Origin: a virus
Taxonomy: Duplodnaviria > Caudoviricetes
DNA length: 39,403 bases
Reading direction: 5' to 3' (one strand)
Virus record (IMG/VR): IMGVR_UViG_3300032234_000919
Coordinates: 1 to 39,403 of that record
Every line of letters starts with the position of its first letter. The stretch's first letter is position 1. The translations under genes were made by a program, and so were the position numbers. Shown here one piece after another: positions 16,328-38,603 of this stretch. The notes beneath the pieces were generated by a model, which did no database searches, was not told the DNA's origin, and was given only the letters and a program-made list of their open reading frames with translations.

Positions 16328-16690
16328 TTAATTAGGAAAGTCTATATTCCCAAACACGTAGTAATCAGAACTAGCATACACAGTGGTTAAACTACCCAAT
16401 ATCTCATACCAAAACATTCCGATATTTAGATTATTTAAACCCGCAATAAGCCCCGTAAATGAATTGTACATATTTCCACTCATAGTCATAAAGGTAGGGT
16501 CGGTTGCTTTCTTTACTTGAATACTAAATGTAGGGTTATTAGAAAAGTTTACCCCACTTGTATCCCAAGTGTAAAGTGTATTAGCATTGGCACTAAATCT
16601 ATTAGGGTCTTGTAAACCACCAAATAAAGAAACATTCAAAAGAAAATTTTGAGTGTTGGTTACATTTATATTTATCAGTTTACGAGCCAT
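16328..16690 (-). CDS. Putative virion protein; N-terminus resembles the first strands of the candidate capsid protein
   Basis: ININVTNT....LNVSLFGG versus IIQISNT....NFDVLGS; beta-rich composition. Confidence 0.5.
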   Translation of the reverse strand: MARKLININVTNTQNFLLNVSLFGGLQDPNRFSANANTLYTWDTSGVNFSNNPTFSIQVKKATDPTFMTMSGNMYNSFTGLIAGLNNLNIGMFWYEILGSLTTVYASSDYYVFGNIDFPN

Positions 16691-19600: not shown

Positions 19601-19728
19601 AATATATCAGTTATACAACCTTGTTTGGTAGTTTGTGCATCGCTATCCCAAATGGGCATAGTAAAGCATCCTTTTATTTGCGCACTCGATAATAAAGGTA
19701 ATGCGCCCGTGGTTTTGTTAGTACTCAT
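16690..19728 (-). CDS. 1012-aa Gly/Cys/Asn-rich repeat fibre (YadA-head-like repeats)
   Basis: Dozens of ~15-aa S.(I/V)xGG..N repeats; C-terminal PTSSAGLPAGAVWSNGGVL. Confidence 0.75.
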   Translation of the reverse strand: MSTNKTTGALPLLSSAQIKGCFTMPIWDSDAQTTKQGCITDILAGVSSLYILGSGANSTIRCGVGNSAIGAFSNSLGGQNNCSASIFSSIVGGCGNRSTGYASFVGGGTNNAACGIGSLVVGGQGNSSTGNCSAVVGGCANTASGDYSFIGGGRGNSATNQQSFVGAGFSVTNAGGRSVIGGGLTNSVTANCSVLVGGRDNTLSAGYAFIGGGKSNVLSGTSSVVVGGASNNASGACSSVIGGQCNIASGTWSGVVGGLSNCAISVFSSVVGGCGNIASGYGSFVGGGVNNVIVGCSQSSVIVGGVNNCINRFGGGIFCGTFIGGGHNNLICQTNDRACFATIVGGFCNVNQSRGGFIGGGCSNNTGSAYASVIVGGTNNTSSSSCSFLGGGTNNTSSSSNSFVGGGNSNIASGAYSVIVNGFENRASGVNSFVGNGCRNSFFGAVCGNYTSIVNGEYNRVCGIYAFTGSGCYNYACADYAYVGNGLRNCATNSWSSVLNGNFNCATSVFSSVVGGCGNKALGYGSSIVGGVNNCIFLTSIFGAIVGGENNRIGFVNPANHQFIGGGSGNIACEWCSVVVGGTFNLAGARRSSIVGGCNNVTTNLDSFIGGGVSNTTSGLQSTISGGFVNISSGNCSTVIGGQENQATGGHSSVLGGIRSCATCDYSTASGFYAKATAAYSISLGGNRSCAIGECSSTLGGRCSIASGIGSTVSGGYANRSCGEVSFVGAGGLNCSIGNASGILGGQLNRALGNFSSIVGGFSNCACTDAFIGGGNNNLATGSDSVVVGGQQNCATSTFAIVVGGCGNNASGGLSFVGGGSGNIASACRSAVAGGDQNTASGNPSFIGGGFLNVASCVYSGVGAGLRNSASSNNAFVGAGFCNIASSDNTFIGGGCCNVANTSLSVVVGGKLNTASALYTNILGGQSNTACANYATVVSGLCNTAQANGSVILGGDLNVAQNNYAGIYGCGITSALDCAWHVNRLVIANVPTSSAGLPAGAVWSNGGVLNIV
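18533..18604. repeat. 27-bp exact repeat at 45-bp spacing within the fibre gene
   Basis: GAACTAGAAGTGTTGTTTGTACCACCA at 18533-18559 and 18578-18604. Confidence 0.85.
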
Positions 19729-20507: not shown

Positions 20508-20954
20508 TTAAAAATCACTAATATACTCTTTGAAGAACTCTATGTCATTGATTGTAGTGTTTCCATTAAACATTGATTGAGCCGTTTGTTCTTCGACTTC
20601 AATTCTATAACCCACAGTGGTGTTTGCCTCTATATTCGCGAAAAATGCGTTGTTTGAATCGAACGCATAATCGTAGCCAAACATAGATTGATTTAAACTT
20701 GCTTGGTCTTGATAGGGGTCAACCATCATCTGTAAATTCACTTCGTTTTTATCACCGAATTTGTTGAATTTTCTTAGACGAACGGGTTGTAATAATTGAG
20801 AAATACTAGAAGTAGACTGATAAATGTTGTATAATAAATAATCGTAGTTAAGACCTATTGAAGCGTTTATTTGGTCATAAGAAATACCACTTGCTCCCCT
20901 AACTTCAACTACGGGAGAACTATTTACGCTTATTATGGGTGCAATACTAGGCAT
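20508..20954 (-). CDS. Paralog of the candidate capsid protein (minor capsid?)
   Basis: Shares Y.Q, QS.S..QLL, DPYQ.Q, GY...D and I.A.T.V with 32746-33444. Confidence 0.65.
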   Translation of the reverse strand: MPSIAPIISVNSSPVVEVRGASGISYDQINASIGLNYDYLLYNIYQSTSSISQLLQPVRLRKFNKFGDKNEVNLQMMVDPYQDQASLNQSMFGYDYAFDSNNAFFANIEANTTVGYRIEVEEQTAQSMFNGNTTINDIEFFKEYISDF

Positions 20955-21862: not shown

Positions 21863-22048
21863 CTACTTTATAGGTAATTTAGACCAAATAATTTCGTGTC
21901 CAAAGTATAAAATTGGCTTCCAAAGCAAATCTGTTATGCTCATATAGATACCAACATCAATTCTGTTAGTAGTAATATAAGCAATAAAAAATGTGGAAAG
22001 TGAGCCAACTATTCTATAAGTAATCGTCTTATAAATCGCCCTTTTCAT
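21863..22048 (-). CDS. DUF2061-like small membrane protein
   Basis: KTITYRIVG...K.ILYF.HE..W; start ATG 22048. Confidence 0.75.
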   Translation of the reverse strand: MKRAIYKTITYRIVGSLSTFFIAYITTNRIDVGIYMSITDLLWKPILYFGHEIIWSKLPIK

Positions 22049-22391
22049 TTTTAAGTTGTTCGCGAATTTTAGTCCCACTAATTTCAGCAATTTCCGATGG
22101 TGGAATATGTTCTATTACCTCATATCCTACATCTCGACCATAGTTGAAACTCTCTATATCGGGAATAATAATTACTTTAACCATACCCTCATTAATTAAT
22201 GGATATAGTTGTTTCATAATGTTCAAACGAACTTCTTCCGCACTATAAGGGTTCTTTTCGTCTTTTTCAACATCACGAACCGCAATAAGTACGGGAATAC
22301 CTTGATTTAAATTTTGGTCTATTAGCCAACGATGACCACTATGCCATACTTGCCAACGACCTACATACATTGCATATTTTTTCTTTTCCAT
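22029..22391 (-). CDS. HxGH nucleotidyltransferase (cytidylyltransferase-like)
   Basis: GRWQVWHSGH and ISGTKIR. Confidence 0.8.
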   Translation of the reverse strand: MEKKKYAMYVGRWQVWHSGHRWLIDQNLNQGIPVLIAVRDVEKDEKNPYSAEEVRLNIMKQLYPLINEGMVKVIIIPDIESFNYGRDVGYEVIEHIPPSEIAEISGTKIREQLKNEKGDL

Positions 22392-22411
22392 ATTTTTACA
22401 TTTTACATTTG

Positions 22412-22879
22412 TTACAAATTCAAAAAACTAACAATCTTTCGTAAACATTCCATTTCGGTAAATTCGGAAGTATTTACTGATAAAAGATTTTCTTCGGCTA
22501 TTTCGGTTGGTTCTTCAAAATCAACGCAATGAAAAGCCTCTCTACCCCTCTTTTCTTTTACATCGTAGGTAAGGTAAATCCACTTTACTTGCTTTCCCAA
22601 CGACTCAATATATTGCCTTGCTTCCGCATAAGGAAACACAAAAGAAATTAGGACGTAGCGATTGAGTGAACATTCATAATATGCCATTTCACTAGCACGT
22701 TTAAGGTTTCTCAATCGCCCCTTCCTAGAATAGTCTTGGTCTTTAAACAACAACCGAAATTTATCGTTATCAATAAAATGCGCTGATGGTTTGTTAGCCT
22801 TTGATTTAAGGTGTCCAAATAACAACTTACTCAAAGTTGATTTTCCACTATGGGGTTGTCCAAAGAAAACTATTATCAT
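22412..22879 (-). CDS. cysC: Adenylylsulfate (APS) kinase-like protein
   Basis: GQPHSGKST; D.DKFR; DYSRKGR..N; FEEP. Confidence 0.8.
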   Translation of the reverse strand: MIIVFFGQPHSGKSTLSKLLFGHLKSKANKPSAHFIDNDKFRLLFKDQDYSRKGRLRNLKRASEMAYYECSLNRYVLISFVFPYAEARQYIESLGKQVKWIYLTYDVKEKRGREAFHCVDFEEPTEIAEENLLSVNTSEFTEMECLRKIVSFLNL

Positions 22880-23313
22880 TATTCTTCATCTTTAATTACT
22901 TCCATATCCGCTTGAGGTTCTTCATTACCTACTTCGGTTTCGGGAGTTTCTTCTACTTGGGAAACTTTTTCTGTTTCTTCAGTTTCCTCAGACTTTTCTT
23001 CAACTTCTTGGTTAGAAATAATTCCAACAATTGCATTCTCGTTTTGAACAACATCAAAAGATTTTCCTACAAATAAGAAATGGTGTTTATATAAGCCATT
23101 AGGACTTATACCGCTCCAAGTCAAAACAATAGCACCATCGCTATTAATAGCATCTACTAAAAAAACTTCTGCATTTACAATTGCTTGTAAGTTTTCATCT
23201 TCTTCGACTTCAGCAATTTCACCGATGGTGAAAATATATTTCTTATCGGAGTTTTCGGGATAGTTTTCGTTACTCCTAACTAAAACTACTTTATTATCTT
23301 TTAAGTTTATCAT
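22879..23313 (-). CDS. Acidic hypothetical protein
   Basis: Glu-rich tail; in operon. Confidence 0.7.
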   Translation of the reverse strand: MINLKDNKVVLVRSNENYPENSDKKYIFTIGEIAEVEEDENLQAIVNAEVFLVDAINSDGAIVLTWSGISPNGLYKHHFLFVGKSFDVVQNENAIVGIISNQEVEEKSEETEETEKVSQVEETPETEVGNEEPQADMEVIKDEE

Positions 23314-24131
23314 TTTGTGTATCTAAAATAGTCAAAAAACCATTTGTAAGTATTCCAAATCCAATCAGTAACATCTCGACCTAAAACTTGTTTAGCAGTG
23401 CTAGGAACGACTTCTAACTTAGTGCGAATAGTATGGTCTCCAAAGATTCCATAAACTTCGTCTGATTCTTGAGTAATTTGCTCAATATTATCCCAATCGT
23501 GTTGGAAGTAAGGCAACCCTAAATACTCATAAATACGATGCATTTCAGTATCGGGGTTTATGCACAAGTCTTCAAACTTTACAAAAAGTATTTTTGAATC
23601 GTAGCCTTGTCGCATAATTTCTGAAAGCCTTTCAATAGCCATACCAACGGGTTGTCCGTTTGCCCAAACATCAATTCGTTTTGGGGTACTAGTACCAATG
23701 AGTTGAGCGTGGTCTACCATATTGTTTCCCAAATGCTGATTTTTACGGAAATTCTTTTCCATAGAGCAATAAACATCTCTCAAATCGCGAACCATACAAA
23801 TAATCTTAGGTTCGGGATAAAAGAAATTTAAAAAGTCTCTATGTATTCCGTAAGCACGGCTTTTTTCCATTACAAACTTTTTGTCCGTAATGGCATTGAA
23901 AAAGCCAAACATACCATTGTGGCAAAAAGCCTTCCACCCCTTTTCCATAGTTTCTGTATCTTGGGCTTTAAATTCGGGGCTATTTCTATAATTGGCTTGG
24001 GCAGCATACAACAACTCAAAAACTCCACTAGTAGGAGTAACGTAAAAGTCGGGATTTTGAGCCATAATGTTTTGCAACAACGTGCTACCACTACGAGGCA
24101 AACTCGAATTGAAAAATATTTTATCTACCAT
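23310..24131 (-). CDS. PAPS-dependent sulfotransferase
   Basis: 5'-PSB SLPRSGSTLL; 3'-PB VRDLRDVYCS; KFEDL..NP. Confidence 0.9.
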   Translation of the reverse strand: MVDKIFFNSSLPRSGSTLLQNIMAQNPDFYVTPTSGVFELLYAAQANYRNSPEFKAQDTETMEKGWKAFCHNGMFGFFNAITDKKFVMEKSRAYGIHRDFLNFFYPEPKIICMVRDLRDVYCSMEKNFRKNQHLGNNMVDHAQLIGTSTPKRIDVWANGQPVGMAIERLSEIMRQGYDSKILFVKFEDLCINPDTEMHRIYEYLGLPYFQHDWDNIEQITQESDEVYGIFGDHTIRTKLEVVPSTAKQVLGRDVTDWIWNTYKWFFDYFRYTK

Positions 24132-24136
24132 ACATT

Positions 24137-25012
24137 TTAAATTTTTTCTAAAGCCTCAATAATAGTTTCCGCATCGAATATTTCGTTGGAACTATTGTAG
24201 GGCATTTCTAATGGGTCTCCCGTAATGTTAAACATACCCAAATAAGCATTACGCAATTCGGGCTTTTTAGTCCAATCTTTCGCTTGAATATTGATATGTG
24301 TGTCGTATCCAAATACACCCTCGGCATTGGCAATCCAACAAACCACGGAGGGAAGTTGTAAAGCAGCGCAAACGTGGTTAGCAAATGAATCAATCAAAAG
24401 GCGTTTTTGTGCCATCATTAAAAGAACACACATAGCACGGAAATTATCGGAAACCATCACCGTGTTATTCAAAGCGGGTTGGTCTTCTCTACGAATATGA
24501 CATACTAAATATTTTTCGGCATAATGGTCTACTACCTTCTGAGCCGTTTGTTGTGGAATATCTCTAGCCCAAGAATATTTGTTTTCTTGATTTGGTGCAC
24601 CCCCGTTTGTCTGAATAACCATCAACGGCTTATCCGAGACGAACTTTTGAGAATATAATTCCATTTCCCTTTGTGTGAGGTAAATTTGGGGATATTCTCC
24701 GTTGTATTGATACCCATTAAGTTTTGCCCACGTTTTAAGGATATGTTCGGTTTTTTGAATATGGGCAATCTCAAAATAGGGATTGTGAGCGTGTACTTTG
24801 CAAGGCTTATTGTGAATATATTCCTCATAAAAATATTGAATGTTTCCGAATCCGAATGACCTATCAACGTAAGGATTGTTTAAAAAAACTTCGGGGTATC
24901 CACTAACAACGATAAGTTTTGCTTCGGGATGTTGAACCTTGATAGTTTGGCAAATTGCGGTGGCAATAATACACTTACCTAAACCACCATCTATTTGAAA
25001 AATTATATTCAT
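24137..25012 (-). CDS. Glycosyltransferase, GT-B fold (GT9-like)
   Basis: GGLGKCI; IDSFANH.CAAL..PSVV.W. Confidence 0.75.
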   Translation of the reverse strand: MNIIFQIDGGLGKCIIATAICQTIKVQHPEAKLIVVSGYPEVFLNNPYVDRSFGFGNIQYFYEEYIHNKPCKVHAHNPYFEIAHIQKTEHILKTWAKLNGYQYNGEYPQIYLTQREMELYSQKFVSDKPLMVIQTNGGAPNQENKYSWARDIPQQTAQKVVDHYAEKYLVCHIRREDQPALNNTVMVSDNFRAMCVLLMMAQKRLLIDSFANHVCAALQLPSVVCWIANAEGVFGYDTHINIQAKDWTKKPELRNAYLGMFNITGDPLEMPYNSSNEIFDAETIIEALEKI

Positions 25013-25503: not shown

Positions 25504-26010
25504 CTAAGCATAGTATTCATCGTAAAGAGATTTTAACTCTCTTCCACTTGTACTATATCTTACGGGCACTTTTGTAAATCCGAAAATAGTTTTGATTCTG
25601 AAGTTTCCAACAAAATCCATTGGTATATCTTTCAAGGTTAAAGCATTTGCAGCGATTGTTCTCCATCCACTAATTAAACTCTTAGGGTCAAAATTAATGG
25701 TGAACGAAATAGGTGATTTTGAATTAGGTGCAATAGTGGTTTCTTTGGCTTCGACTATAGAACCCAATTTAACTCCACCCGTAAACGCTAAAATATCAAT
25801 ATCCTTAATGGTTGCAGTGAAGTTTGATTTGTTTATAATTTCCAAAGTAACTACACCTTCAGCAGTTGGTATTAATTTGTTTATTCTAAATCCAATTACG
25901 TTAAAGTCCCATTGGTTCGCTAACAATACGTTGCGATATACATAACGCGCAATAGCCGCACCCGCAAGTGTAGCACCCGTAATCAAAAGAATTTTGTTTG
26001 CTTTCATCAA
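25504..26010 (-). CDS. Membrane-anchored LEA_2/WHy-like protein
   Basis: N-terminal TM; LEIINKSNF...IKDID...G..LG...TIAPN beta-sandwich pattern. Confidence 0.55.
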   Translation of the reverse strand: MMKANKILLITGATLAGAAIARYVYRNVLLANQWDFNVIGFRINKLIPTAEGVVTLEIINKSNFTATIKDIDILAFTGGVKLGSIVEAKETTIAPNSKSPISFTINFDPKSLISGWRTIAANALTLKDIPMDFVGNFRIKTIFGFTKVPVRYSTSGRELKSLYDEYYA

Positions 26011-26270
26011 TTAAATAATAATTTGTAACCTACATATAAAGCACCCGCTGCTAAAAAATAATACACTATTGAATTAGGTACTCCCAAAACAACGGGCTCT
26101 TGTGCATTTAAACGCTCTACTCTACCACGAACTTCATCTACGCTAGATTGAACTTCGGGGGAAAAAGTTTCTTTGAATTTTAAACCAAAAGTTTTTGCTT
26201 GAGCAACATCGGCTTCAAGTTTCAAACCAATATCCTCATTGCCATCAGCATAAAAAAAGTTGTCTCTCAT
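26007..26270 (-). CDS. Tail-anchored virion membrane protein with ADG motif
   Basis: FFYADG near the N-terminus; C-terminal TM. Confidence 0.7.
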   Translation of the reverse strand: MRDNFFYADGNEDIGLKLEADVAQAKTFGLKFKETFSPEVQSSVDEVRGRVERLNAQEPVVLGVPNSIVYYFLAAGALYVGYKLLFN

Positions 26271-26271
26271 A

Positions 26272-27027
26272 TTAATTTCTTCTAGTTACAAAATAACCTA
26301 CAATTAATACTGCAACACCAATACCTACGTACAATAATGTTTTGTTGGATTTACCACCACCTAATGCACCAAGTACATCAGACCCACTACTACCCGTTGG
26401 GGGTGCTACGGGAGAACCCGTTTCAGCCGCTCTTTTAGCCTCTTCCATAGCAAGTCTTTTTTTCTCTTCTGCTAATTTTTTTTCTTCTTCTGCTTTCACT
26501 TGCTCTTCTTTCAACTTAATTATGTTGTCAAGTTCTTTGCTCAGTTGATTTAACGCTTCAATGTTTGCTCTAGCCTTGGAAGAACGTCTGAAAATTTCTA
26601 TTTCTTCTTTGTTTAAAACCAAAGTTGGCAACATAGCACTTAATACACCTATTCCAAAAGTTTTCGCCCTTACATTTCCCCTTTCTTGGTCTTTTTGATT
26701 TTCCCAAGTTATTTTGTCTGCATCAAACTTTTTTCTTATGGTTTGAAGTTCGTCCAAACTAAGTTTAATATTATATGGGAAAGCGGATTTATAACTATTC
26801 CTAGCAGCATCAATTTGTGAACCATAAGGAGCGGTAAATGCATCCCATTTTTTATCTGAATTGTCGAATGCTCTACGAAGAATTTTAGTCGCATCACTTT
26901 GACGTTGATTAAAATCTCCTAAACTTGCATCTCCATCAGCCCCTAAAAAGTTATCGGTTTCTAGCATCATAAGATTATCTCTCGATGCTACTTGAAAACC
27001 ATCGGCATTAGCCCAAGTCATTTTCAT
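26272..27027 (-). CDS. Tail-anchored coiled-coil protein with two ADG motifs
   Basis: WANADG, FLGADG; C-terminal TM + RR. Confidence 0.75.
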   Translation of the reverse strand: MKMTWANADGFQVASRDNLMMLETDNFLGADGDASLGDFNQRQSDATKILRRAFDNSDKKWDAFTAPYGSQIDAARNSYKSAFPYNIKLSLDELQTIRKKFDADKITWENQKDQERGNVRAKTFGIGVLSAMLPTLVLNKEEIEIFRRSSKARANIEALNQLSKELDNIIKLKEEQVKAEEEKKLAEEKKRLAMEEAKRAAETGSPVAPPTGSSGSDVLGALGGGKSNKTLLYVGIGVAVLIVGYFVTRRN

Positions 27028-27560
27028 TTTTTGTATCTCCTATAAATAAAAAATCCTAAAACCCCAACGGCAACAACAACACCACCAATAAGCACGTACA
27101 TACCTACTTTGCTATCACTTTTTGCCCCTAGAATTTTATTTAATTGTGATTGGAAATCTTCTTCTGCTTTTTGCGCAAACTTTAACTCACATTGAGATTT
27201 ATCGTAGAATGCTTTTAACTCATTTAAAGCACGTGTACGTCCATCTATGTAGGCTTGTAGTTGTTCTTTTTTTGCTTTCTTAGCCCCAACCATCGCCCTT
27301 TTATCAGCGGTAATTGCATCTTCAATTGCAGCAATAGTAGCCTTTAATACTTCACAATTAGATTTATCTTCTTCCTTCAATCCTCCAATTGACCATCCAT
27401 AGGCTTCATTTTGCTTAGAGCCATCAGCATAAGAATAATCAACATTGGGGAAACCAAATTCCACTTTGTCGGAAAAACTATATTCGTCACTACGGGGGCT
27501 TTGCTCACCCGTAAATCCGAAAGACATATCGTCATTTTTGAAAAAAACGTCTATTTCCAT
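27024..27560 (-). CDS. Tail-anchored coiled-coil protein with ADG motif
   Basis: YSYADG; C-terminal TM + RRYKK. Confidence 0.75.
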   Translation of the reverse strand: MEIDVFFKNDDMSFGFTGEQSPRSDEYSFSDKVEFGFPNVDYSYADGSKQNEAYGWSIGGLKEEDKSNCEVLKATIAAIEDAITADKRAMVGAKKAKKEQLQAYIDGRTRALNELKAFYDKSQCELKFAQKAEEDFQSQLNKILGAKSDSKVGMYVLIGGVVVAVGVLGFFIYRRYKK

Positions 27561-27561
27561 T

Positions 27562-27981
27562 TTATTTAAGTTGGGTTATATAATAATCAATTTGTGATTC
27601 GTACTTTAAAGGTAACAATCTATCTCCAAAAACAAAAACAATTGCTCTCATTGTCCTTCTACCTAACAAACCATCAACTTTCAATTCGGGCAAATCTATT
27701 TTTTTTGCCTTTATATATTCATTTAATTTAGTTTGAAGAGTTTCGACTTTGGTCTTAAAAGCAGCATCTGTTTTTGCTAATTCAGTTGGGTTAAAAGAAG
27801 TTGAAAAATATTTATCGTAAGATTCTAAATCTTTATTTAAAATATCTTCTTCAGTATTACCCGCGCCTAAAATTTTCTTTTTTAGGTCTTCGTCTTTTTT
27901 CTTTTTAACTATTAAAACAATAGCGGTGATAACTACACCTACTCCTAAGACGGAAAGTATTATTTTAGTGTTCTTTTTCAT
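27562..27981 (-). CDS. Membrane protein with a peptidoglycan-binding domain
   Basis: N-terminal TM; V..LQ..LN...LKVDGLLGRRT..AI (PG_binding_1 pattern). Confidence 0.7.
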   Translation of the reverse strand: MKKNTKIILSVLGVGVVITAIVLIVKKKKDEDLKKKILGAGNTEEDILNKDLESYDKYFSTSFNPTELAKTDAAFKTKVETLQTKLNEYIKAKKIDLPELKVDGLLGRRTMRAIVFVFGDRLLPLKYESQIDYYITQLK

Positions 27982-27983
27982 TT

Positions 27984-28490
27984 TTAAAATTTAATTACAT
28001 CTTCTCTTACCCAAGGATAATATTGTATAAATGAAGTATTTCTTGTTAAGAAAGATTTTTTACTTTGAAGTTCATCGTATAAGTTTCTATCCAATTTAAA
28101 TTTCACCCATTTATAAGGTCTTTTAGTGTTTGGGTTCATCATAGAGCCCGAATCTAATGCTACTTCAACTGCTTCACCTAATAACTTACCCTCTCCTTCA
28201 ACAAAATCAAATAAGTTGTTTATAAACCCATCGTTTACATAAGGTTGAGTTCTTAAATTTGTTGTAGATGTTTTAGTTAAGATTTTTTTGTTCTTAATTA
28301 CTTTTGTGGCTTCGGATGGTGATAATTTCATAATTGAATCCACTTCGGGTATAATTACTTTCTGTTTTTCAGTATCTTCCGATTCTTCACCACCAAATGT
28401 AACATTAGGCTTGTCCGATTTTCGGAAAGCAAATAAAACTATACCACCTAGTATAGCAATTGGAATAAGATATGGCAAATACTTTTTCAT
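27984..28490 (-). CDS. Membrane protein with an SH3b-like domain
   Basis: N-terminal TM; NLRTQP...WVKF...WVREDVI. Confidence 0.5.
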   Translation of the reverse strand: MKKYLPYLIPIAILGGIVLFAFRKSDKPNVTFGGEESEDTEKQKVIIPEVDSIMKLSPSEATKVIKNKKILTKTSTTNLRTQPYVNDGFINNLFDFVEGEGKLLGEAVEVALDSGSMMNPNTKRPYKWVKFKLDRNLYDELQSKKSFLTRNTSFIQYYPWVREDVIKF

Positions 28491-28666
28491 TATATTTTAG
28501 ATGCATCAACTTTTTTCCAAAGTGCTTCAAAGTCCTTGTCTGCTTTCGATTCTATTTCTTTTTTTAGAGCCGAAGCATCACTAGTTCTTTTTACCACCAA
28601 TATAATTAATCCTATTACAACCGCAACAGAACTATATAGCAATATTTTTTTAGTATTGTCCGTCAT
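28490..28666 (-). CDS. 58-aa membrane protein
   Basis: Hand-translated MTDNTKKILLYSSVAVVIGLIILVVKR...; abuts both neighbours. Confidence 0.75.
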   Translation of the reverse strand: MTDNTKKILLYSSVAVVIGLIILVVKRTSDASALKKEIESKADKDFEALWKKVDASKI

Positions 28667-29121
28667 TATTGTACTTTTTGATATACTCTATATCCAATGT
28701 AACCAACACTACCTAATACTAGTGCGTAAATACCTATTTTTATTACATTCACGCCTTTACCATCAAATATATCCGCAATAGATTGAGCAACATTAGTTAC
28801 TACTTCTGATGCACTATCTACAACGTCAAATGCAGAACCGCTTGGCTTTAAAACAAGTTTAAATAAACCTGCATTTTTATAAGGGTCTAAGCCCTCTTTG
28901 GAAACGTAAGCACGAAAATCAGAATCAAATGTTCTGCAATCGTAATGAGATGCAAATTCAGTACCACGTGAATAAGCGAACTCCCACATATATTTTGCAC
29001 GTTCTGCTCCGAATTTGGTCTTTAATAGTTTATGCCATTGTACCCAATCGCCACAATTCCAAGAACTATCTCTACCCCATTCATCGTAGTCGGGAACGCT
29101 ATTCCAAGTTGTAACTGCCAT
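28666..29121 (-). CDS. Tail-anchored membrane protein
   Basis: Trp-rich N-terminal domain; C-terminal TM. Confidence 0.75.
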   Translation of the reverse strand: MAVTTWNSVPDYDEWGRDSSWNCGDWVQWHKLLKTKFGAERAKYMWEFAYSRGTEFASHYDCRTFDSDFRAYVSKEGLDPYKNAGLFKLVLKPSGSAFDVVDSASEVVTNVAQSIADIFDGKGVNVIKIGIYALVLGSVGYIGYRVYQKVQ

Positions 29122-29122
29122 A

Positions 29123-29905
29123 TTATTCTATTACTATATTCATCTTTTCAAAGTCATTGATAAACTTGTTAATCAAGTCGTAACGAGCCTTATTAAGTTG
29201 AGTTGGTTTTTCTTTAAAAGTTTCTAAAAATGCTTGATAAGCCTCAATTCTTGGGTATCCTAAACCCAAATAAATTAATAAGCCATTCAAGTCTGCTTCC
29301 ATTTCATCATCAATTTTTTCATTCAAGTAAAAATGAGAAAACTCGTGTAATAAAATTGCCATCCTCATAGGGATAGTAAATTTCAAAAAGGCTTTCTTAC
29401 TTACTTGAATAGTACCCGTTCTTCTTCCAATACGTGCGGGAGTTGTTAACTCCACCCCATTTTCTTTTCTGATAGTAGAAACTAGATTTATGAAAAAATT
29501 GCCGTCATCGCTCCGATAAGTCTTGTTTACATCCAAATCTGATACATTAAAACAAAATTTTTGTGAAAAATTCACAAAATTCCGAATCATCGAATTTCCA
29601 ATATCATTCTCATCAATTCTACGCTCTAATGCCGACTTCTTTACAGAAATCAATTCATAACCTACATTACTATTTCCTAAAGTTCCATTGGGAGTATTGG
29701 AAACTTCTATTTTTGATACTTCGGGAGAAAGAGGCATACGAACAAATAGAGTTTCTTCACCTTGGATAGTTTTCCATCGCTCAGTGAACTTTCTAAATGG
29801 GTTTGATGCATCTGAAACCGTGAAGTATAATTTCTGAGGTTTATCGCTTCGTACTTTTACAACTAGTGTAATCGGTGCATAGTTCGTGACAACTTTTTCT
29901 ATCAT
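29123..29905 (-). CDS. Zincin metalloprotease (candidate maturation protease)
   Basis: ILLHEFSH followed by EMEAD (third-ligand pattern). Confidence 0.75.
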   Translation of the reverse strand: MIEKVVTNYAPITLVVKVRSDKPQKLYFTVSDASNPFRKFTERWKTIQGEETLFVRMPLSPEVSKIEVSNTPNGTLGNSNVGYELISVKKSALERRIDENDIGNSMIRNFVNFSQKFCFNVSDLDVNKTYRSDDGNFFINLVSTIRKENGVELTTPARIGRRTGTIQVSKKAFLKFTIPMRMAILLHEFSHFYLNEKIDDEMEADLNGLLIYLGLGYPRIEAYQAFLETFKEKPTQLNKARYDLINKFINDFEKMNIVIE

Positions 29906-30114
29906 TGACCCGCCCTCCTAACATCTTCGGGAGTACTATTAACTTGTACACTGCCCGATTTAATTTTAGATAAAGCCCTATCAATAGCATCATCGGAGTC
30001 ATTATCCGCGTCCAAAGGTTTTTTGGATGGGTTAAGACTTCCCCTATTAGCATAGATAAGCAATGCTATTAGAGCGATTAAGCCATAGGTCTTTATTTGT
30101 TTGTTAGTTAGCAC
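29902..30114 (-). CDS. Small membrane protein
   Basis: N-terminal TM. Confidence 0.7.
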   Translation of the reverse strand: MLTNKQIKTYGLIALIALLIYANRGSLNPSKKPLDADNDSDDAIDRALSKIKSGSVQVNSTPEDVRRAGQ

Positions 30115-30379
30115 CTTTTTTATACATTCTATAAATTAAGATTCCACCAATTACTAAGACCCCAACAAATAGTAAATTTTTCCCGATAATGCTACCGATT
30201 TGTAAATTTTCTTTTATCTGTTGAGTTGGTTCTAGTTCATCCCCTCCGTCTGCATTGTTAAATTCTTCTTGTGCCTTCACATTAGGAATAAAAACGCCTT
30301 TGGATTTTTCTCTTTCAATCCACTCACGAAATGGTAATGTACTTCCACTCTCTCTATATAATTGATTTGCACTCAACAT
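30104..30379 (-). CDS. Tail-anchored protein with ADG motif
   Basis: FNNADG; C-terminal TM + KK. Confidence 0.75.
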   Translation of the reverse strand: MLSANQLYRESGSTLPFREWIEREKSKGVFIPNVKAQEEFNNADGGDELEPTQQIKENLQIGSIIGKNLLFVGVLVIGGILIYRMYKKGAN

Positions 30380-30380
30380 A

Positions 30381-30890
30381 TTAATTTTTGCGAATATCGC
30401 TCAAAAATAATTCTTTTCCGTAACCCGAAAATTTCAAAATCACTTTATCCCCCAAACCGCTTGTAGCAGATGATGGTAAAGTCATTGTTCCCATACCCGT
30501 ATCTGTAGCACCACTTGGTATTACAACACTACCCGAAGTTGGAGTTGGTACATAAACACCACCCGTTGAAGTTGGAGTTGGAGGTGGCAATAAAATACCA
30601 CTATCCTTCAAAATCTTGTCAGCCGTTGCAGTACTACCCGCTGAAATAGGTGAAGATGCTCCTTCTTTTGCAGCAGTTGCTCCACTAGGAGGAGTAACGG
30701 GCATTGAAGAAATAGTTACACTTACGGGAGTTGATGGAGTAACGGGGCTAGGAGGCAAAATTATTGTTCCTCCGCCTCCACCGCCTCCACCACCTTGAGT
30801 AGTGCTTTCGGGTTTTTTCTTATATCTATTGTAAAGAAGTATTGCCGCAACGGCAACACCTCCATACAATAACAAATTGTTATTTGCCAT
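30381..30890 (-). CDS. Membrane protein with a poly-Gly, Pro/Ser/Thr-rich (mucin-like) ectodomain
   Basis: N-terminal TM, G9 run, P/S/T tracts; TATCTTTG at 30895-30902. Confidence 0.75.
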   Translation of the reverse strand: MANNNLLLYGGVAVAAILLYNRYKKKPESTTQGGGGGGGGGTIILPPSPVTPSTPVSVTISSMPVTPPSGATAAKEGASSPISAGSTATADKILKDSGILLPPPTPTSTGGVYVPTPTSGSVVIPSGATDTGMGTMTLPSSATSGLGDKVILKFSGYGKELFLSDIRKN

Positions 30891-30907
30891 ACTTCAAAGA
30901 TAAATAA

Positions 30908-31024
30908 TTATTTATTACCCTCTGTAGTCGTAGTGGTAGCCGTTGGTTTTGGCTTCTTGAAAACGAAATACAAAACACCCGCCACAACGGCAAGAGTTAA
31001 GATAGTTTTTGTTGTTTTGTTCAT
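30908..31024 (-). CDS. 38-aa membrane peptide
   Basis: Hand-translated MNKTTKTILTLAVVAGVLYFVFKKPKPTATTTTTEGNK. Confidence 0.7.
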   Translation of the reverse strand: MNKTTKTILTLAVVAGVLYFVFKKPKPTATTTTTEGNK

Positions 31025-31035
31025 AATTTTATAAA

Positions 31036-31221
31036 TTAAAATGGTTGTTTTTTGTAAAGTTGGTCATCGAAAGTAATTTCATCTTGTGTGAAATTAGCAA
31101 ATCCATCGGGCTGAGGATTTCCATTAGTAGCGGAATCCAAAACATCGTCTTTTTTTAAAGACTTAATTATTAGCACCGCTGCCAATATCCCTAGTCCGTA
31201 GTATATGTATTCTTTTTTCAT
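31036..31221 (-). CDS. Small membrane protein
   Basis: N-terminal TM. Confidence 0.7.
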   Translation of the reverse strand: MKKEYIYYGLGILAAVLIIKSLKKDDVLDSATNGNPQPDGFANFTQDEITFDDQLYKKQPF

Positions 31222-31436
31222 TTTTTAAATAAATTATAGATTATGTATGCACCTAGAGCAACACCTAAAAACATCAATATTCCACCCATATTTTCTTCTT
31301 GTGTTGTATTTAATTTTTCATCTTCTGAATTATCACCATCAGCACTTAAAGTCAAGTTTTTAACTCGACTTATTTGTGGATTGAAAAATTGTTTGTTTAC
31401 TATGTTTGAATCAAGTGTCATATTAATCTCTTTCAA
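31218..31436 (-). CDS. Tail-anchored protein with ADG motif
   Basis: LSADG; C-terminal TM + KK. Confidence 0.7.
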   Translation of the reverse strand: MKEINMTLDSNIVNKQFFNPQISRVKNLTLSADGDNSEDEKLNTTQEENMGGILMFLGVALGAYIIYNLFKK

Positions 31437-31647
31437 ATAAAAAGTAATTTATTGCACCTCCACCAATTGCTCCTAAAACGGCAAAAACGTAAAGGTTCTT
31501 TTTAGAGTACCAAGCATACATTAGACCCGCAACTACACCAACTGCACCACCTTTAATTACTTTCTTAGATTTATCTACGAAAGAATCGTGAGCATCTTGG
31601 CTCTTTATTTTTTTTACGTTATCTAATGCATCCTCAAATTGTTCCAT
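31423..31647 (-). CDS. Two-TM Gly-rich membrane protein
   Basis: GGAVGVVAG and LGAIGGG helices. Confidence 0.7.
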   Translation of the reverse strand: MEQFEDALDNVKKIKSQDAHDSFVDKSKKVIKGGAVGVVAGLMYAWYSKKNLYVFAVLGAIGGGAINYFLFERD

Positions 31648-31650
31648 ATT

Positions 31651-32283
31651 TTACTTCTTTTTATAAAAGTAAACTGCAACACCTATCAATGCTATCGCTC
31701 CAACAACTAATAAAACAGTGGTAGTAGTTGAAATACCTCTACCGCTTCCGATTGAAGATAGTTCATCTCTACCCGAATTCAAGTCAGTTGAAACAACATT
31801 TGCAGGTTGTCCCGTTTGTTTAATTGACCAAATATTTAAACCCGTATTGATTGCACTTGTAGCATTTTCGGGAGTAAATAGACCACTTAAAAAAGAGCCT
31901 ACTGCCGTATCTGAAAAACTTTTCTTTGGTCTTGTAGTTAGACCCGTAGGTGGCTCTATTGGGGGAGTACCACCTAAAGTCATAAATACTTTTGACGAAG
32001 ATGATGGGTCTGAAGTAGAAAGCCCTTTACCACTAGGTAAATCAGTTGCAGCAAAACCGCTATAATCCTCTTGAGCCGTTCTTAAAATTAACTTAGAAAA
32101 ATCATTCCTAAATTTTTCGCTTTTTGGCAATAATGCAGCAAAGGCTTTTTCAATTTGTGTTGAAGAAGCATTGTCCGCTATCATTACACCATTCTTACGA
32201 ATTAAAGCAATGGTTTCTTTTGGATTGTTATCAATCGTATAAGCCGTAAGGGCGTAGATTTTATTTGGTTCTAGTGATTTCAT
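31651..32283 (-). CDS. Tail-anchored membrane protein
   Basis: S/T/G-rich linker; C-terminal TM + KKK. Confidence 0.75.
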   Translation of the reverse strand: MKSLEPNKIYALTAYTIDNNPKETIALIRKNGVMIADNASSTQIEKAFAALLPKSEKFRNDFSKLILRTAQEDYSGFAATDLPSGKGLSTSDPSSSSKVFMTLGGTPPIEPPTGLTTRPKKSFSDTAVGSFLSGLFTPENATSAINTGLNIWSIKQTGQPANVVSTDLNSGRDELSSIGSGRGISTTTTVLLVVGAIALIGVAVYFYKKK

Positions 32284-32666
32284 TTTTTTGATACAATAAT
32301 TGCTGCGGCTATAATGATTGTTGCCGCTATCAACATAGCATTAGTTTGTAATGCCAATTTTGTCGAATCATTTTGTTGTTGGTTGTTATTTAAAACTGCC
32401 CCCGTAAGGATTCCGTCCGCTCCCAAAAAACTTTCATTTTTCTTGCATCCACAATTGCCATTTGCGTTTGAGTACAACTCAACAAATAAATCTTTGTCGG
32501 GATGTATTTCGGCTATTGCTTTTAATGCGGGTTCGCCTTCTTGGGCTACCAACATACGAAGATTATCGCCCATTCTACGAGGGTCAACTACTTGATAACC
32601 GAATTGATTAATTACGGCTTTTGCCCCGTATGGATTTGATTTAGCGATGTATTCGTAAAAGTTCAT
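32280..32666 (-). CDS. Tail-anchored protein with two ADG-like motifs
   Basis: YSNANG, FLGADG; C-terminal TM + KK. Confidence 0.75.
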   Translation of the reverse strand: MNFYEYIAKSNPYGAKAVINQFGYQVVDPRRMGDNLRMLVAQEGEPALKAIAEIHPDKDLFVELYSNANGNCGCKKNESFLGADGILTGAVLNNNQQQNDSTKLALQTNAMLIAATIIIAAAIIVSKK

Positions 32667-32692
32667 TTTATTTTCTTTTTTGTGTTATAAAT

Positions 32693-32727
32693 AAAAAAAG
32701 GGGAGGGCGAAACCACCCACCCCTTTC
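32693..32727 (-). terminator. Terminator after the candidate capsid gene
   Basis: AAAGGGG.GGG/CCC.CCCCTTT stem followed by a T-run. Confidence 0.8.
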
Positions 32728-32745
32728 TTATGGTTAAAAGTTGGA

Positions 32746-33444
32746 TTAACCTACTAATTTCACGGGTTGTGAACGTACAATGCCAGGAGAACCGAATTGA
32801 CGGCTTACTGCATTTCCATTCAATCCACGAGCCAAGTTGATGTTGTCGCTTGGGTACAAGTACAACTTAACGCTAGTAGAAGCCAAGATTTGGTTAATGA
32901 TTAACTTAGTGTAACCATCAATTCTGTACCCGTAGCGCATAGCCAACACAGTTGTCTGTTGCTGATATGGGTCGATTGTTGGTACTAAAGGCTTTTGAGC
33001 CAAGTTACCATTAGCGTCTTGAGTTTCTACGCTGATTACTTCCAACAACTGAGTGCTAGAAGCAGATTGGATATAAGTCAAACCAACGCTGAATGGGTTG
33101 TTCATAAACTGATACAACATTTGGCGGTAGTTTACGTTTGGTACTGCTGAACTAATGGTAGTTGAACCAATAACTAGAGAACCTGCTGCATTGAAACCAC
33201 TATTGTTGATGTATTCGTAAGAACCTAATACGTCAAAGTTAGAGGTAGCAGAACCTGTGTTTGAAATTTGAATGATGTAAGGCTGAGATGTAGGGGCACT
33301 TCCACCACCCATTTCGCCATTTGCAGACATAAAATCTTCAGAAGCAGTGAAAGATAAATCACTATCGAAGAATCCATCGGCATTTAAAAAAGACTCGTGA
33401 GCACGACCTTGTGCTGCTGCGAGATACTTGCGGATATTACTCAT
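32746..33444 (-). CDS. Candidate major capsid protein (single jelly-roll-like) with an N-terminal propeptide
   Basis: Beta-rich, no TM. Has its own promoter and terminator, C-ending codon bias, sits next to the packaging ATPase and has paralogs. FLNADG/FMSANG in the N-terminus. Confidence 0.55.
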   Translation of the reverse strand: MSNIRKYLAAAQGRAHESFLNADGFFDSDLSFTASEDFMSANGEMGGGSAPTSQPYIIQISNTGSATSNFDVLGSYEYINNSGFNAAGSLVIGSTTISSAVPNVNYRQMLYQFMNNPFSVGLTYIQSASSTQLLEVISVETQDANGNLAQKPLVPTIDPYQQQTTVLAMRYGYRIDGYTKLIINQILASTSVKLYLYPSDNINLARGLNGNAVSRQFGSPGIVRSQPVKLVG

Positions 33445-33739: not shown

Positions 33740-34552
33740 TTACTTTAAGTACATTTTTTTTAGTCGTTGGAGTTCCGATTTCATCGCACTATCGTGGGTA
33801 TATTTCGGTTTGTTAGTAGAAGTCCTAACTTGGAGCATTGGAGTAATTACCCTTCGATAATTTTCTTCTAAATATTGAGTACAAGCAACCTCAAACTTTT
33901 TCTCGTCAATCTTTCCTATTAAACACATATTTTCTACGTCCACATACTGATAAAATCTAATATTATCGGCAAAGTATTCGTTGTTTACCATAAACTCGGT
34001 TATGCGCAACAATTCATATTTATCTTCAAACTTCTTTTCGTGTCTTTTTGTGCTTTCCGTAATTTTATGAAACCGAAGCCAATTCATATTTTGCCAAACC
34101 TTCGGGGAAACCCTCCCTATACCTTGGTAGTGTAAAATAATATCTAAGTCCCTATGTCGGTTCGTTGCAATAGCCCCCATTAAGTCCATAGGCATACTAT
34201 CGCTGATGTAGCGGTTAATATCTTCAATCAATAGTAAACCTCCGCTATAGTTGTCTAAAATCACTCCTAAAGTATGTCCTAGTTCGTCTAGGGTCATTTT
34301 TTTACCATTCGGATGAAAAGGTCTAACTCTTCTTGCTTCAACAACGGGATGTAAACTAAACTTGATTAAATCTTTCAGTGCAATTGCCTTAATATGGGTA
34401 AACTCATCATTCACATCAAGTATTAGTGCTTTCCTTGGAAGTATCCCACTAGCGGGGTTTCCCATCACATAATCTTGCACTAACTTATTGGTAGTAAATG
34501 ATTTGCCACACCCTTTTTTGCCCACCGCAACACCTAATTTTGGCTCTCTCAT
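33740..34552 (-). CDS. FtsK/HerA-superfamily (A32/P9-like) genome packaging ATPase
   Basis: Walker A GKKGCGKS; ILDVNDEF; Walker B LLLIED; RH...IILHYQ arginine-finger/sensor; ATGA-coupled start at 34552. Confidence 0.75.
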   Translation of the reverse strand: MREPKLGVAVGKKGCGKSFTTNKLVQDYVMGNPASGILPRKALILDVNDEFTHIKAIALKDLIKFSLHPVVEARRVRPFHPNGKKMTLDELGHTLGVILDNYSGGLLLIEDINRYISDSMPMDLMGAIATNRHRDLDIILHYQGIGRVSPKVWQNMNWLRFHKITESTKRHEKKFEDKYELLRITEFMVNNEYFADNIRFYQYVDVENMCLIGKIDEKKFEVACTQYLEENYRRVITPMLQVRTSTNKPKYTHDSAMKSELQRLKKMYLK

Positions 34553-35304
34553 AGATTTTGCCCTTCTAAATATTTTTTCTTCCAAACATATAACATACTC
34601 TTATCTACATTGAATTTTTCTTTTACTTGAGTTAAAGTTGCTTTATCTTCAATCCAATATTTAAGTGCTTGTTTCTTATGTTCTTGCCATTGTTCTAAAG
34701 TCATACCTTTTTTTTGAGCAATAGAAGATTCTGTACCATTGGACATTCGACTTTTAGTTTCATCACTTCTTTTGTAAGAAGCGGCTTCTCCCATCATTTT
34801 ACGTTGTTCGTAAGTCCATCCACCACTTTTCTCATACCATTCTCTTATTTTCTGCTTGGACTCTTCGGTGTGTTTTTTACCTTTATTCACTTCGCTTAAT
34901 TTTTGTTTGTGTTCAATAGTCTTTTTTCTACCTTTTGCTTTTTCACTTATTTTTCTTTTTTGTTCTTCAGTTAATTTATACTGAATAGAACCATTTGAAA
35001 TATCTAAAATATTGTAAAGGATTATTTTATTTAACTCCCTCTCTTGTTGACGAAAATACTTTATCCAAAATACTTCTCTTTCTGATGCATTGTCAAATGA
35101 ACAAATCTCCAATGGCTCAATAAATAAATTATCTTGCCCATACTTCTTGTAAGCAGATACAAAATATTTATTTGTATGTAAATCTCTTTTCAAGTTTTGA
35201 ATATGAGTGTTCATTCTTTGCTCTAACCTTAATGATGTTTTGCCAACGTATATTCTTTCATCGCCTTTGAAGAAAAGTTTGTAGATAGTGTATTTGTCTT
35301 TCAT
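34549..35304 (-). mobile_element. Free-standing GIY-YIG homing endonuclease with NUMOD3 repeats
   Basis: IYKL...IYVGKT...R...H; E..WI; YN; KGKKHTEESKQKI. Own TATATTTG at 35309-35316. Confidence 0.85.
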
Positions 35305-36761: not shown

Positions 36762-37131
36762 TTTCAATAAAAATTATCTTGCCCTCTTCACCCCATATTT
36801 TTTTTGCCACAATGGAATGAATAGTTTGGTCGCCTTCGGGTTTCAACGCATCAAATACAAACTTGATAATATTATCTAAGTCGGGTTTTGATTGATGTTT
36901 AGTACCACACATTCTTTGTCGTTTTTTATTCGACCAAGAACTCGGCATTGGCAATACAAATATAATATTTGCTTCGTCTTTTAAAAGAAAATTTTGCGAT
37001 GCTGCAAAAAATTGAATTGCTTGACAACTCAATCTATACCTCAGCACTTCGGGTCGGGGAGGTTTGAGCCACTTATCCCTTTGTGTCATTCGTGGCTTAC
37101 CTATTGGATTTAATAGAAATTCATATTCCAT
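36733..37131 (-). CDS. rusA: RusA-family Holliday junction resolvase
   Basis: KPDLDNIIKFVFDAL...D..I. Confidence 0.85.
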   Translation of the reverse strand: MEYEFLLNPIGKPRMTQRDKWLKPPRPEVLRYRLSCQAIQFFAASQNFLLKDEANIIFVLPMPSSWSNKKRQRMCGTKHQSKPDLDNIIKFVFDALKPEGDQTIHSIVAKKIWGEEGKIIFIENDNNTEELT

Positions 37132-37768
37132 ACTTACTTGTGAATTCTTTCGATTGTACTAGTCTCTTAGCGCAAATGTGCGCGAAGTCATTATCAGTTG
37201 GATAATGAAGTCCTAAAAACAATCTACTTGTGGCTACATCGTGTGTTAAATTAGAAAGTGTTTCGTAATGTTCGGGATATTTATTCCCTATAAATTCAGT
37301 TAATACCCTTGCTTGAAAAGTATGCCCACTTGGATAAGAGGGATTAACTGCTGCCAATGATTTAAACGGAAACAATTTTGCCTTGTATTGCCCCGCTAAT
37401 TGATATGGTCTTATTCTCTGATAGTGAAATTTTAATTTGACTACCAAAAATTTGGTATCTTCTATAATTTCATCAATTTGAGAATCTAAATTTTGTCCTA
37501 CTTTGTTTTTGCAGTAGTTCTTAAAAATTTCAATTAAGTTTTTATCGTATTCAATATATCTACCAACTAATTCTTCATTTTGTTGTTCGGGTAAATTTTG
37601 ATATTGAATCAAAACTCTAATCTCATCCTTTGCTGCTTCACTTGAGTTTGTTGGATAAGGATATTCTTTTAAATCATCAAAAATATAATCAGACCCACCT
37701 TTACGTAGATAAGGTAGGAAGTCATCAGTAGGATTGCCGTAAATTATTTCATCAAGGTAGTTCTTCAT
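37121..37768 (-). CDS. PAP2-superfamily phosphatase/haloperoxidase-like protein
   Basis: K.....RP; YPSGH; SR...GLHYPTD. Confidence 0.85.
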   Translation of the reverse strand: MKNYLDEIIYGNPTDDFLPYLRKGGSDYIFDDLKEYPYPTNSSEAAKDEIRVLIQYQNLPEQQNEELVGRYIEYDKNLIEIFKNYCKNKVGQNLDSQIDEIIEDTKFLVVKLKFHYQRIRPYQLAGQYKAKLFPFKSLAAVNPSYPSGHTFQARVLTEFIGNKYPEHYETLSNLTHDVATSRLFLGLHYPTDNDFAHICAKRLVQSKEFTSKYGI

Positions 37769-38105: not shown

Positions 38106-38603
38106 TTATGCTATAAATTTTATGTAATTACCTTGCCTCATAACGGCACGATATTTACCGACTTGTGCTTTGGGTCTTTCAGTACCCGTAAATTCCACTT
38201 TGGGTTCTATCTCATCCATTACCTCTTTTTTCGCTTCTTGTATATCTTTAGTATAGTTTCTGTATATAATACCAATAACTGCACCAACACCTACAACTGC
38301 TAAACCTATCTTGGCTTTCTGTTTAACATCACCTTTAACATAATAAAGAGTTGCTAGAACACCCGTCCACCAAATAGGATTCAAAAGATAATAAGCCGAT
38401 ACTGATTTGCGCCAATATTTCTGAGGGGTAATCGTACCCGCCTTCCATTGGTTGCGCAATTTTCTTTCATAATAAAAGTAAAGGGCATCAGCGGGGGTAG
38501 GGATAATATCAGATAATATTAATCCAACCGCCCCCGCATAGAGAACTCCTTGCCCGTACTTTCCGTCCGTTGCTTTCGATATTTCCGAAAAAACTTCTTT
38601 CAT
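38106..38603 (-). CDS. Multi-pass membrane protein
   Basis: Two to three hydrophobic segments. Confidence 0.7.
   Translation of the reverse strand: MKEVFSEISKATDGKYGQGVLYAGAVGLILSDIIPTPADALYFYYERKLRNQWKAGTITPQKYWRKSVSAYYLLNPIWWTGVLATLYYVKGDVKQKAKIGLAVVGVGAVIGIIYRNYTKDIQEAKKEVMDEIEPKVEFTGTERPKAQVGKYRAVMRQGNYIKFIA

Follow-up and report, generated by a model that had tools for sequence, protein, structure and literature searches.

The 39,403-nucleotide virus record IMGVR_UViG_3300032234_000919 (hereafter the window, i.e., the whole 39.4-kb record) codes for a likely major capsid protein and a series of small membrane proteins that share a hexapeptide motif, and a gene for a candidate zinc metalloprotease (zincin) lies among them. 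In the window the motif reads [FYW]xxA[DN]G. Across relatives of the virus it takes the wider form [FYW]-x-[NSG]-[AFMVL]-x-G, of which ADG is the narrow version of the window's lineage. From sequence comparison and structure models we give an even chance that the hexapeptide is a maturation cleavage signal, read by the neighbouring zincin and cut at or near it. The motif itself is real and family-wide, and the mechanism, though unproven, is likely.

The motif in the window

The strict pattern [FYW]xxA[DN]G was found nine times in the 17 open reading frames (ORFs) of the structural block (26007-33444), against 0.16 expected from 5000 shuffles that never gave more than 3, and not once in the other 62 ORFs of the window (0.47 expected). 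A six-frame search added one match, in a non-coding frame. As a look-elsewhere control we scored all patterns of the same shape over 1000 shuffles, and no aromatic-led pattern exceeded 5 matches and none of any class exceeded 8. Chance is ruled out as the origin of the motif by these shuffle controls and by those of the relatives and the distant clade given below. Repeated or duplicated DNA is ruled out as well, since the codons of the window copies differ at synonymous positions, which indicates that selection acts on the peptide.

A sequence-only reading of the window had listed seven motif proteins, and every hexamer that it named is present in the ORF to which it was assigned, on the minus strand. 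Six of the seven carry the strict motif and account for the nine sites. Two sites are in the capsid candidate (32746-33444, 232 amino acids): FLNADG at residues 19-24 (33373-33390) and FMSANG at residues 38-43 (33316-33333). The protein encoded next to it (32280-32666, 128 amino acids) has YSNANG (32457-32474) and FLGADG (32412-32429) and is C-terminally anchored, as are those with FNNADG (30245-30262, in the 91-residue product of 30104-30379), with YSYADG (27420-27437, in the 178-residue product of 27024-27560) and with both WANADG (26998-27015) and FLGADG (26932-26949), the last two within the first 32 of the 251 residues encoded by 26272-27027. The 87-residue product of 26007-26270 carries FFYADG (26241-26258) at residues 5-10. 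The seventh protein, C-anchored and encoded at 31218-31436, does not fit, because its TLSADG (31335-31352) lacks the aromatic residue, although one homologue has FIGADG. Another C-anchored protein (31651-32283, 210 amino acids) shows a degenerate site, YSGFAA, where its homologues often have the full motif. Of the six proteins said to end in a membrane segment followed by basic residues, five are clear and the 26007 product is borderline, its weak C-terminal hydrophobic segment having a hydropathy of 1.53 and being followed by one Lys. The proposed variants FGFTG, LKFSG and VEFTG are weak and lack an aromatic first residue; VEFTG, moreover, is found in 38106-38603, outside the region to which the proposal referred.

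The motif across relatives

We collected 234 locus records, in which many contigs had been fetched more than once, and grouped them into 82 clusters at 90% capsid identity. The motif was studied in the 54 clusters whose sequence extends 6 kb or more downstream from the capsid gene, one duplicate having been dropped. The strict pattern matched 53 times in the 54 capsids, where 1.4 matches were expected. The 387 C-anchored proteins had 40 matches (3.2 expected), the 256 N-anchored ones 9 (1.6 expected) and the 299 proteins of the block that lack a called anchor 12 (3.3 expected); the 360 soluble proteins encoded upstream had 6 (1.9 expected).

Motif discovery on 231 C-anchored proteins stripped of their anchors returned [FY]-x-N-[AFLVM]-[DST]-G, and 99 capsid arms analyzed alone gave a nearly identical matrix. 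At 11 bits this capsid-arm matrix was found 15-fold over shuffles in C-anchored proteins and 1.5-fold in upstream soluble ORFs. In the membrane proteins of the 54 genome clusters, [FYW]xN[AFMVL]xG had 140 matches versus 7.8 after shuffling. The sites are spread over at least 37 BLAST families, and position 5 tolerates D, S, T, N, G, F, E, A and V. Acidic residues are preferred just before the motif and none is preferred after the Gly, i.e., the information ends there. A distant clade, largely held out (2 of its 16 contigs had already been used), behaved in the same way, with 64 matches in 104 membrane proteins (6.2 expected) and 8 in 225 upstream ORFs (8.1 expected).

Conservation in homologues was confirmed for the motif in its wide form, the strict A[DN]G being specific to the lineage. 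Capsid residues A22-D23-G24 are invariant in 109 close homologues. The 32280 gene is a core gene that adjoins the capsid gene in 53 of the 54 clusters, and most of the 53 members of its family keep the site in position (FLGADG in the window); many also have a CxC/CGC cysteine cluster just ahead of it. Homologues of the 26007 product show degenerate forms only. The sites lie a median of 53 residues from C-terminal anchors, 2 of 97 within 10 residues, and are found as well at 16 N-anchored positions and in the capsid candidate, which has no membrane anchor. Sortase-type signals (LPxTG, PEP-CTERM) have their motif directly before a C-terminal anchor, and these distances rule out such a sorting signal.

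The zinc protease candidate and its linkage to the motif

The zincin gene (HEFSH) is located at 29123-29905 on the minus strand, as the sequence-only reading had it, and encodes 260 amino acids, with H187, E188 and H191 of HExxH (29333-29347) followed by E201 and D205. These five residues are invariant in 54 of 54 diverse zincins; the third-ligand Glu and the Asp of ExxxD are also kept in 15 of 15 from the distant clade, and HExxH is intact in all 196 locus records that include a zincin. No Cys is invariant. The structure, predicted with a high score (predicted local distance difference test, pLDDT, 89), consists of a beta-sandwich (residues 1-93) and a gluzincin domain, with HExxH on a predicted helix (178-194). 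Among known folds BepA, an M48 protease, matches it best (Z score 8.3, root-mean-square deviation 4.0, 121 residues aligned), and ZMPSTE24 and abylysin match too. The N-terminal domain resembles GOLD, carbohydrate-binding (CBM) and pre-peptidase domains (Z 6-8). At the profile level the Pfam M48 family was reached weakly by 9 of 120 homologues (best E 0.001), and the window protein reached no Pfam or PHROG family; it belongs to a viral family of its own. The segment YRSDDG (residues 130-135) scores 9.3 bits with the motif matrix but falls in a predicted strand-turn, and we treated it as structural.

In the relatives the zincin gene is found 1.5-7.5 kb downstream of the capsid gene. It was present in 183 of 183 locus records with at least 5 kb downstream, in all 117 of those recruited by the capsid (52 clusters at 90%) and in 15 of 15 distant-clade loci (of 16, one being truncated), so that the motif was never found without the protease, a combination that would have favored a binding role. 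In one locus without a zincin, L316, the 3.9 kb of downstream sequence ends inside the normal range. The survey reaches as far as the distant clade; two distant capsid subgroups, among the deepest branches, gave no loci in IMG/VR.

The capsid candidate and its paralogues

The 232-residue protein is likely the major capsid protein. The model (mean pLDDT 68) has an N-terminal helix (2-20), an acidic, low-confidence and presumably floppy arm (16-51) that includes both motif sites, and a single jelly roll or beta-sandwich (52-200, pLDDT 70-90). Fold matches at Z 5-6.3 are with viral and non-viral jelly rolls alike, and include capsid chains of PR772, PBCV-1 and phiCjT23. The N-terminal 15 residues are basic (median charge +2), and the 35 that follow are acidic (median -6).

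Capsid paralogues are frequent. One of 148 amino acids, without arm or motif, is encoded on the minus strand at 20508-20954, 12 kb downstream of the capsid gene; similar ones occur in many relatives, the motif is absent from 40 of 40 such short arm-less paralogues, and a vertex protein is possible. Five long paralogues (405-436 amino acids; L245, 9560-10783; L278, 501-1772; L281, 1190-2407; L286, 9122-10432; L314, 2468-3766) carry a large insert as well as a membrane anchor at the C terminus, and in three of the five the full motif stands between domain and anchor, just ahead of the latter. Stray paralogues outside the structural block (L226, 6650-7174, 14648 and 17225-18418, in G001; L049, 605-1267; L129, 7298) have unrelated N-termini and no motif, one of them being a 397-residue tandem duplicate. 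In L104, L300 and L400, capsid-like genes are paired in tandem.

Cutting, docking and other explanations

If the hexapeptide is a cleavage signal, the zincin would cleave the chain there or immediately behind it while the virion matures. In favor of this count the recovery of the motif from membrane proteins and from capsid arms separately, its recurrence in the distant clade, the constant presence and invariant active site of the zincin, the end of the information at the Gly, and the motif's position in long paralogues and absence from short ones. The basic N-terminal helix of the capsid candidate (2-20) may tether it to the membrane during assembly, and cuts at residues 19-24 and 38-43 would then free the shell from this tether. 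In proteins such as 26007 and 26272 cutting would remove short acidic propeptides, and in others such as 32280 it would part the soluble domain from its anchor. The scissile bond could be after the Gly, where the information ends, or before the hydrophobic fourth residue; zincins usually cut before a hydrophobic residue. Motif peptides might also dock the proteins before being cut.

Several observations weigh against cleavage by this zincin, the case for which is built from sequence and models. The candidate protease carries no motif of its own (broad form in 0 of 54, strict in 1 of 54), and its constant linkage is what would be expected of any core morphogenesis gene, so that the zincin is not singled out as the reader. 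Sites are lost from many family members, the motif being present in 12 of 45 homologues of the 30104 product and in 8 of 30 of the 31651 product, and distant capsid arms match in 41 (strict) to 63 (loose) cases out of 99. Tandem copies in these arms often end in D, A or E (G has a frequency of 0.60 at the last position), which fits multivalent binding equally well. Within a genome, the motif variants of different families show no joint drift (p = 0.18, 0.28), the co-drift suggested by eye thus being unsupported. In favor of cutting, acidity is higher upstream of the site than downstream in 27 of 40 families, a value reached by 1 of 1000 control splits; yet the local charge step is not significant when the three residues before the motif are left out (p = 0.13), and the window sites have no basic run after the Gly. 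The sharp acidic-to-basic step at the Gly that some relatives' proteins display comes mostly from the five residues just before the motif.

The sequence-only reading had offered cleavage or assembly sorting, a proposal that is partly supported: of the outcomes that it named as refuting, loss of the motif from homologues and relatives with the motif but no protease were looked for and did not refute it. The main rival, that the motif is an uncut docking peptide, bound by a pocket of the capsid jelly roll or by an assembly factor to gather membrane proteins under the shell, with the zincin acting on another substrate, is possible though rather unlikely. The runs of as many as about six degenerate copies in some capsid arms (Met-led in the distant clade), the free gain and loss of the motif in membrane proteins and its variable distance to anchors and termini would suit such a peptide, and endings in D/N/S-G are typical beta-turns. 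There is also a precedent in adenovirus, where the N-terminal peptides of pVI and pVII occupy one hexon pocket although they are also cut (PMC8156859), and by analogy cutting and docking can coexist. Against docking alone, we found no relative without the zincin, the information ends at the Gly, and no alternative substrate is evident for the invariant active site. The complex model of zincin, zinc and capsid residues 1-48 lends weak support to the zincin as binder, with a score of 0.43 (runs 0.03, 0.55, 0.43) versus 0.01 for the best of 3 controls; the runs shared at least 0% of their contacts, the partner had a pLDDT of at least 33, and no interface was returned. In the calibration, 116 of the 157 solved pairs attained the mark, as did 2 of the 215 that were mismatched; 18 of the former and both of the latter did so with scores no higher than 0.60.

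A site of covalent modification (e.g., glycosylation or sulfation) by viral or host enzymes is improbable. The N-x-S/T sequon is spelled by 46 of the 140 N-containing family sites, relatives have many glycosyl- and methyltransferase genes, and sulfotransferase- and kinase-like ORFs were seen in the window sequence at 22412-24131, but none of the nine window sites has the sequon and no modifiable residue is constant, position 5 being mostly D, N, G, F, E, A or V and position 3 often G or S. A shade less probable again, in our view, is that the motif is bound by the zincin in a scaffolding or chaperone role, for which its beta-sandwich may serve, or that a host protease cuts. The likeness of its N-terminal domain to binding and pre-peptidase domains would agree with this, as would the complex run, which gave no interface and hence displayed no binding at the active site; the invariance of all five catalytic residues implies catalysis by the zincin itself. 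Very improbable, finally, is a helix cap, turn or composition effect with no common reader: the motif often follows a predicted helix and D/N-G turns are common, but its 18-fold excess over shuffles in membrane proteins, its occurrence in so many BLAST families and its absence from the non-structural ORFs of the window speak against it.

Comparison with known systems

The sequence-only reading had likened the motif to processing at Gly in adeno- and poxviruses, a likeness that stands by analogy only, those enzymes being cysteine proteases. Vaccinia I7L cuts Ala-Gly|X and adenovirus AVP and the protease of African swine fever virus (ASFV) cut Gly-Gly|X, in each case one protease acting on several unrelated precursors of a jelly-roll lineage virus (the membrane protein A17 among them in vaccinia) at a consensus that ends in Gly (PMC1198262, PMC8156859). 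These are His-Cys-Asp enzymes of eukaryotic viruses, whereas here the candidate is a gluzincin of a bacterial virus, cleavage is a matter of inference, and the motif, counted back from the Gly, is aromatic at -5, Asn, Ser or Gly at -3 and hydrophobic at -2. With HExxH/ExxxD and no invariant Cys, the zincin does not belong to the adenain/I7L/ASFV system.

The prohead proteases of giant and other tailed phages (SPN3US gp245, phiKZ, T4 gp21) likewise act on a short motif common to capsid and other virion proteins. In SPN3US, gp245 cuts nine head proteins at A-X-E|, repeated in N-terminal propeptides of 20-254 residues, and in T4 the propeptides also target proteins to the prohead (PMC10052503). 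Those phages are tailed; here we found no terminase or portal, the capsid candidate is a predicted jelly roll and the candidate substrates are membrane-anchored. Besides, gp245 cleaves itself (PMC10052503) and the zincin has no self-site, a difference that also counts against the cleavage hypothesis. The lack of terminase and portal matches in 5 long relatives and of a motif in the zincin speaks against membership in the Caudoviricetes prohead-protease systems. The zincin system would thus work like I7L/AVP and giant-phage prohead maturation, by analogy, and be a member of neither. With the M48/M56/M78 gluzincins (BepA, ZMPSTE24, abylysin) the zincin shares HExxH, ExxxD and a predicted fold; it differs in being soluble, with an N-terminal beta-sandwich and a viral family of its own.

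The window virus resembles Singelaviria (HCIV-1, P23-77; SSIP-1) in the predicted single jelly roll, the ATPase with its weak HerA-like matches and the many small membrane proteins. Neither the 50,697 phage records nor PDB gave a sequence match for the capsid candidate or the zincin, and the relatives reach 85-102 kb or more versus 44 kb in SSIP-1 (PMC6260650). Singelaviria have two major capsid proteins; here there is one arm-bearing candidate plus the 148-residue paralogue 12 kb away. The Odin group, with double jelly rolls and no ATPase in the text available (PMC5894146), is not that of the window virus. In the accessible text of a review of membrane-containing phages, "protease," "proteolytic" and "cleav" have 0 occurrences (PMC6356626).

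Maturation proteolysis of jelly-roll viruses is described for eukaryotic members, for which a published model has the protease joining a PRD1-like ancestor late (PMC6260650). Somewhat more tentatively than the cleavage itself, at somewhat less than even chances, we propose that gluzincin-based maturation is at work in a large, widespread and undescribed group of bacterial viruses with a membrane and no tail. Their enzyme would read a freely gained tag on the capsid arm and on dozens of membrane proteins, as a prokaryotic metalloprotease parallel to adeno- and poxviruses whose origin is separate from that of the cysteine protease in eukaryotic jelly-roll viruses. If true, proteolytic maturation of jelly-roll viruses would have arisen twice, once in a bacterial lineage with a zinc protease. 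The motif flags likely virion proteins in a family of more than 1300 capsid clusters, and the protease that it implies should be sequence-specific, which two cloned genes would suffice to test.

The virus, its host and other genes

At 90% clustering the family comprises 1354 capsid and 1606 zincin clusters. Neither protein has a sequence match among 50,697 annotated phage records, where the ATPase described below had a weak Walker-B match only. A PDB sequence search gave no match, a viral fold library weak matches only, and structure atlas matches of the capsid candidate were all <0.9. Our literature searches, with most subscription journals outside their coverage, returned no description of the virus group or the motif. 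The terminase (PF03237) and portal (PF04860) profiles found nothing in five relatives of 84-102 kb, controls being detected, though each is a single family that divergent forms may escape. With PHROGs at 1e-5, terminase, portal and major capsid families were absent among the 62 ORFs of at least 130 amino acids in one relative (G003), whose matches did include tail-fibre families and one "virion structural protein." Altogether the virus is probably tailless and membrane-containing, an internal membrane being suggested by the many single-pass proteins.

A GH19 endolysin, RecT and RusA, identified by Pfam/PHROG profile searches, indicate a bacterial host. Among 43 pattern matches in GTDB, 12 were true relatives, but in unrelated and probably misbinned genomes (4 Bacteroidota/Ignavibacteria), giving no consistent answer on the host phylum. 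Where DNA runs containing the window genome carry a label, it is freshwater, lake or plankton. Three RNA runs had contigs over the capsid gene region, yet less than 1/10 of the words, so that transcription was not demonstrated.

Upstream of the capsid gene, a P-loop ATPase without the motif (33740-34585, minus strand) is likely a genome-packaging enzyme, resembling FtsK/HerA. Its Pfam matches are weak and HerA/Zot-like (DUF87/HerA in 24 of 37, best E 1.2e-5), and it has invariant R143-H144 and Q154, which we take to be marks of packaging ATPases. The block of membrane proteins ends with a LEA_2-domain protein (25504-26010, minus strand) that is present in distant relatives too. In some relatives (L119, 16114 and 16641; L048, 16681 and 17213; L117, 6955 and 15999) membrane proteins have an acidic leader with motifs that are tandem or degenerate, and Lys/Arg-rich runs come directly after it, looking like a masked DNA-binding segment.

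The remaining genes mentioned here are all on the minus strand of the window. Four ORFs at 22029-25012 presumably encode nucleotidyltransferase, adenylylsulfate kinase, sulfotransferase and glycosyltransferase homologues. A 1012-residue repeat protein rich in Gly, Ser, Cys and Asn (16690-19728), without Pfam or PHROG match, is possibly a spike or fibre. A PAP2-family phosphatase (37121-37768), which may act on lipids, is encoded within a conserved block located upstream of the ATPase gene, and a GIY-YIG/NUMOD3 homing endonuclease gene (34549-35304) lies directly upstream of the ATPase gene and overlaps its start.

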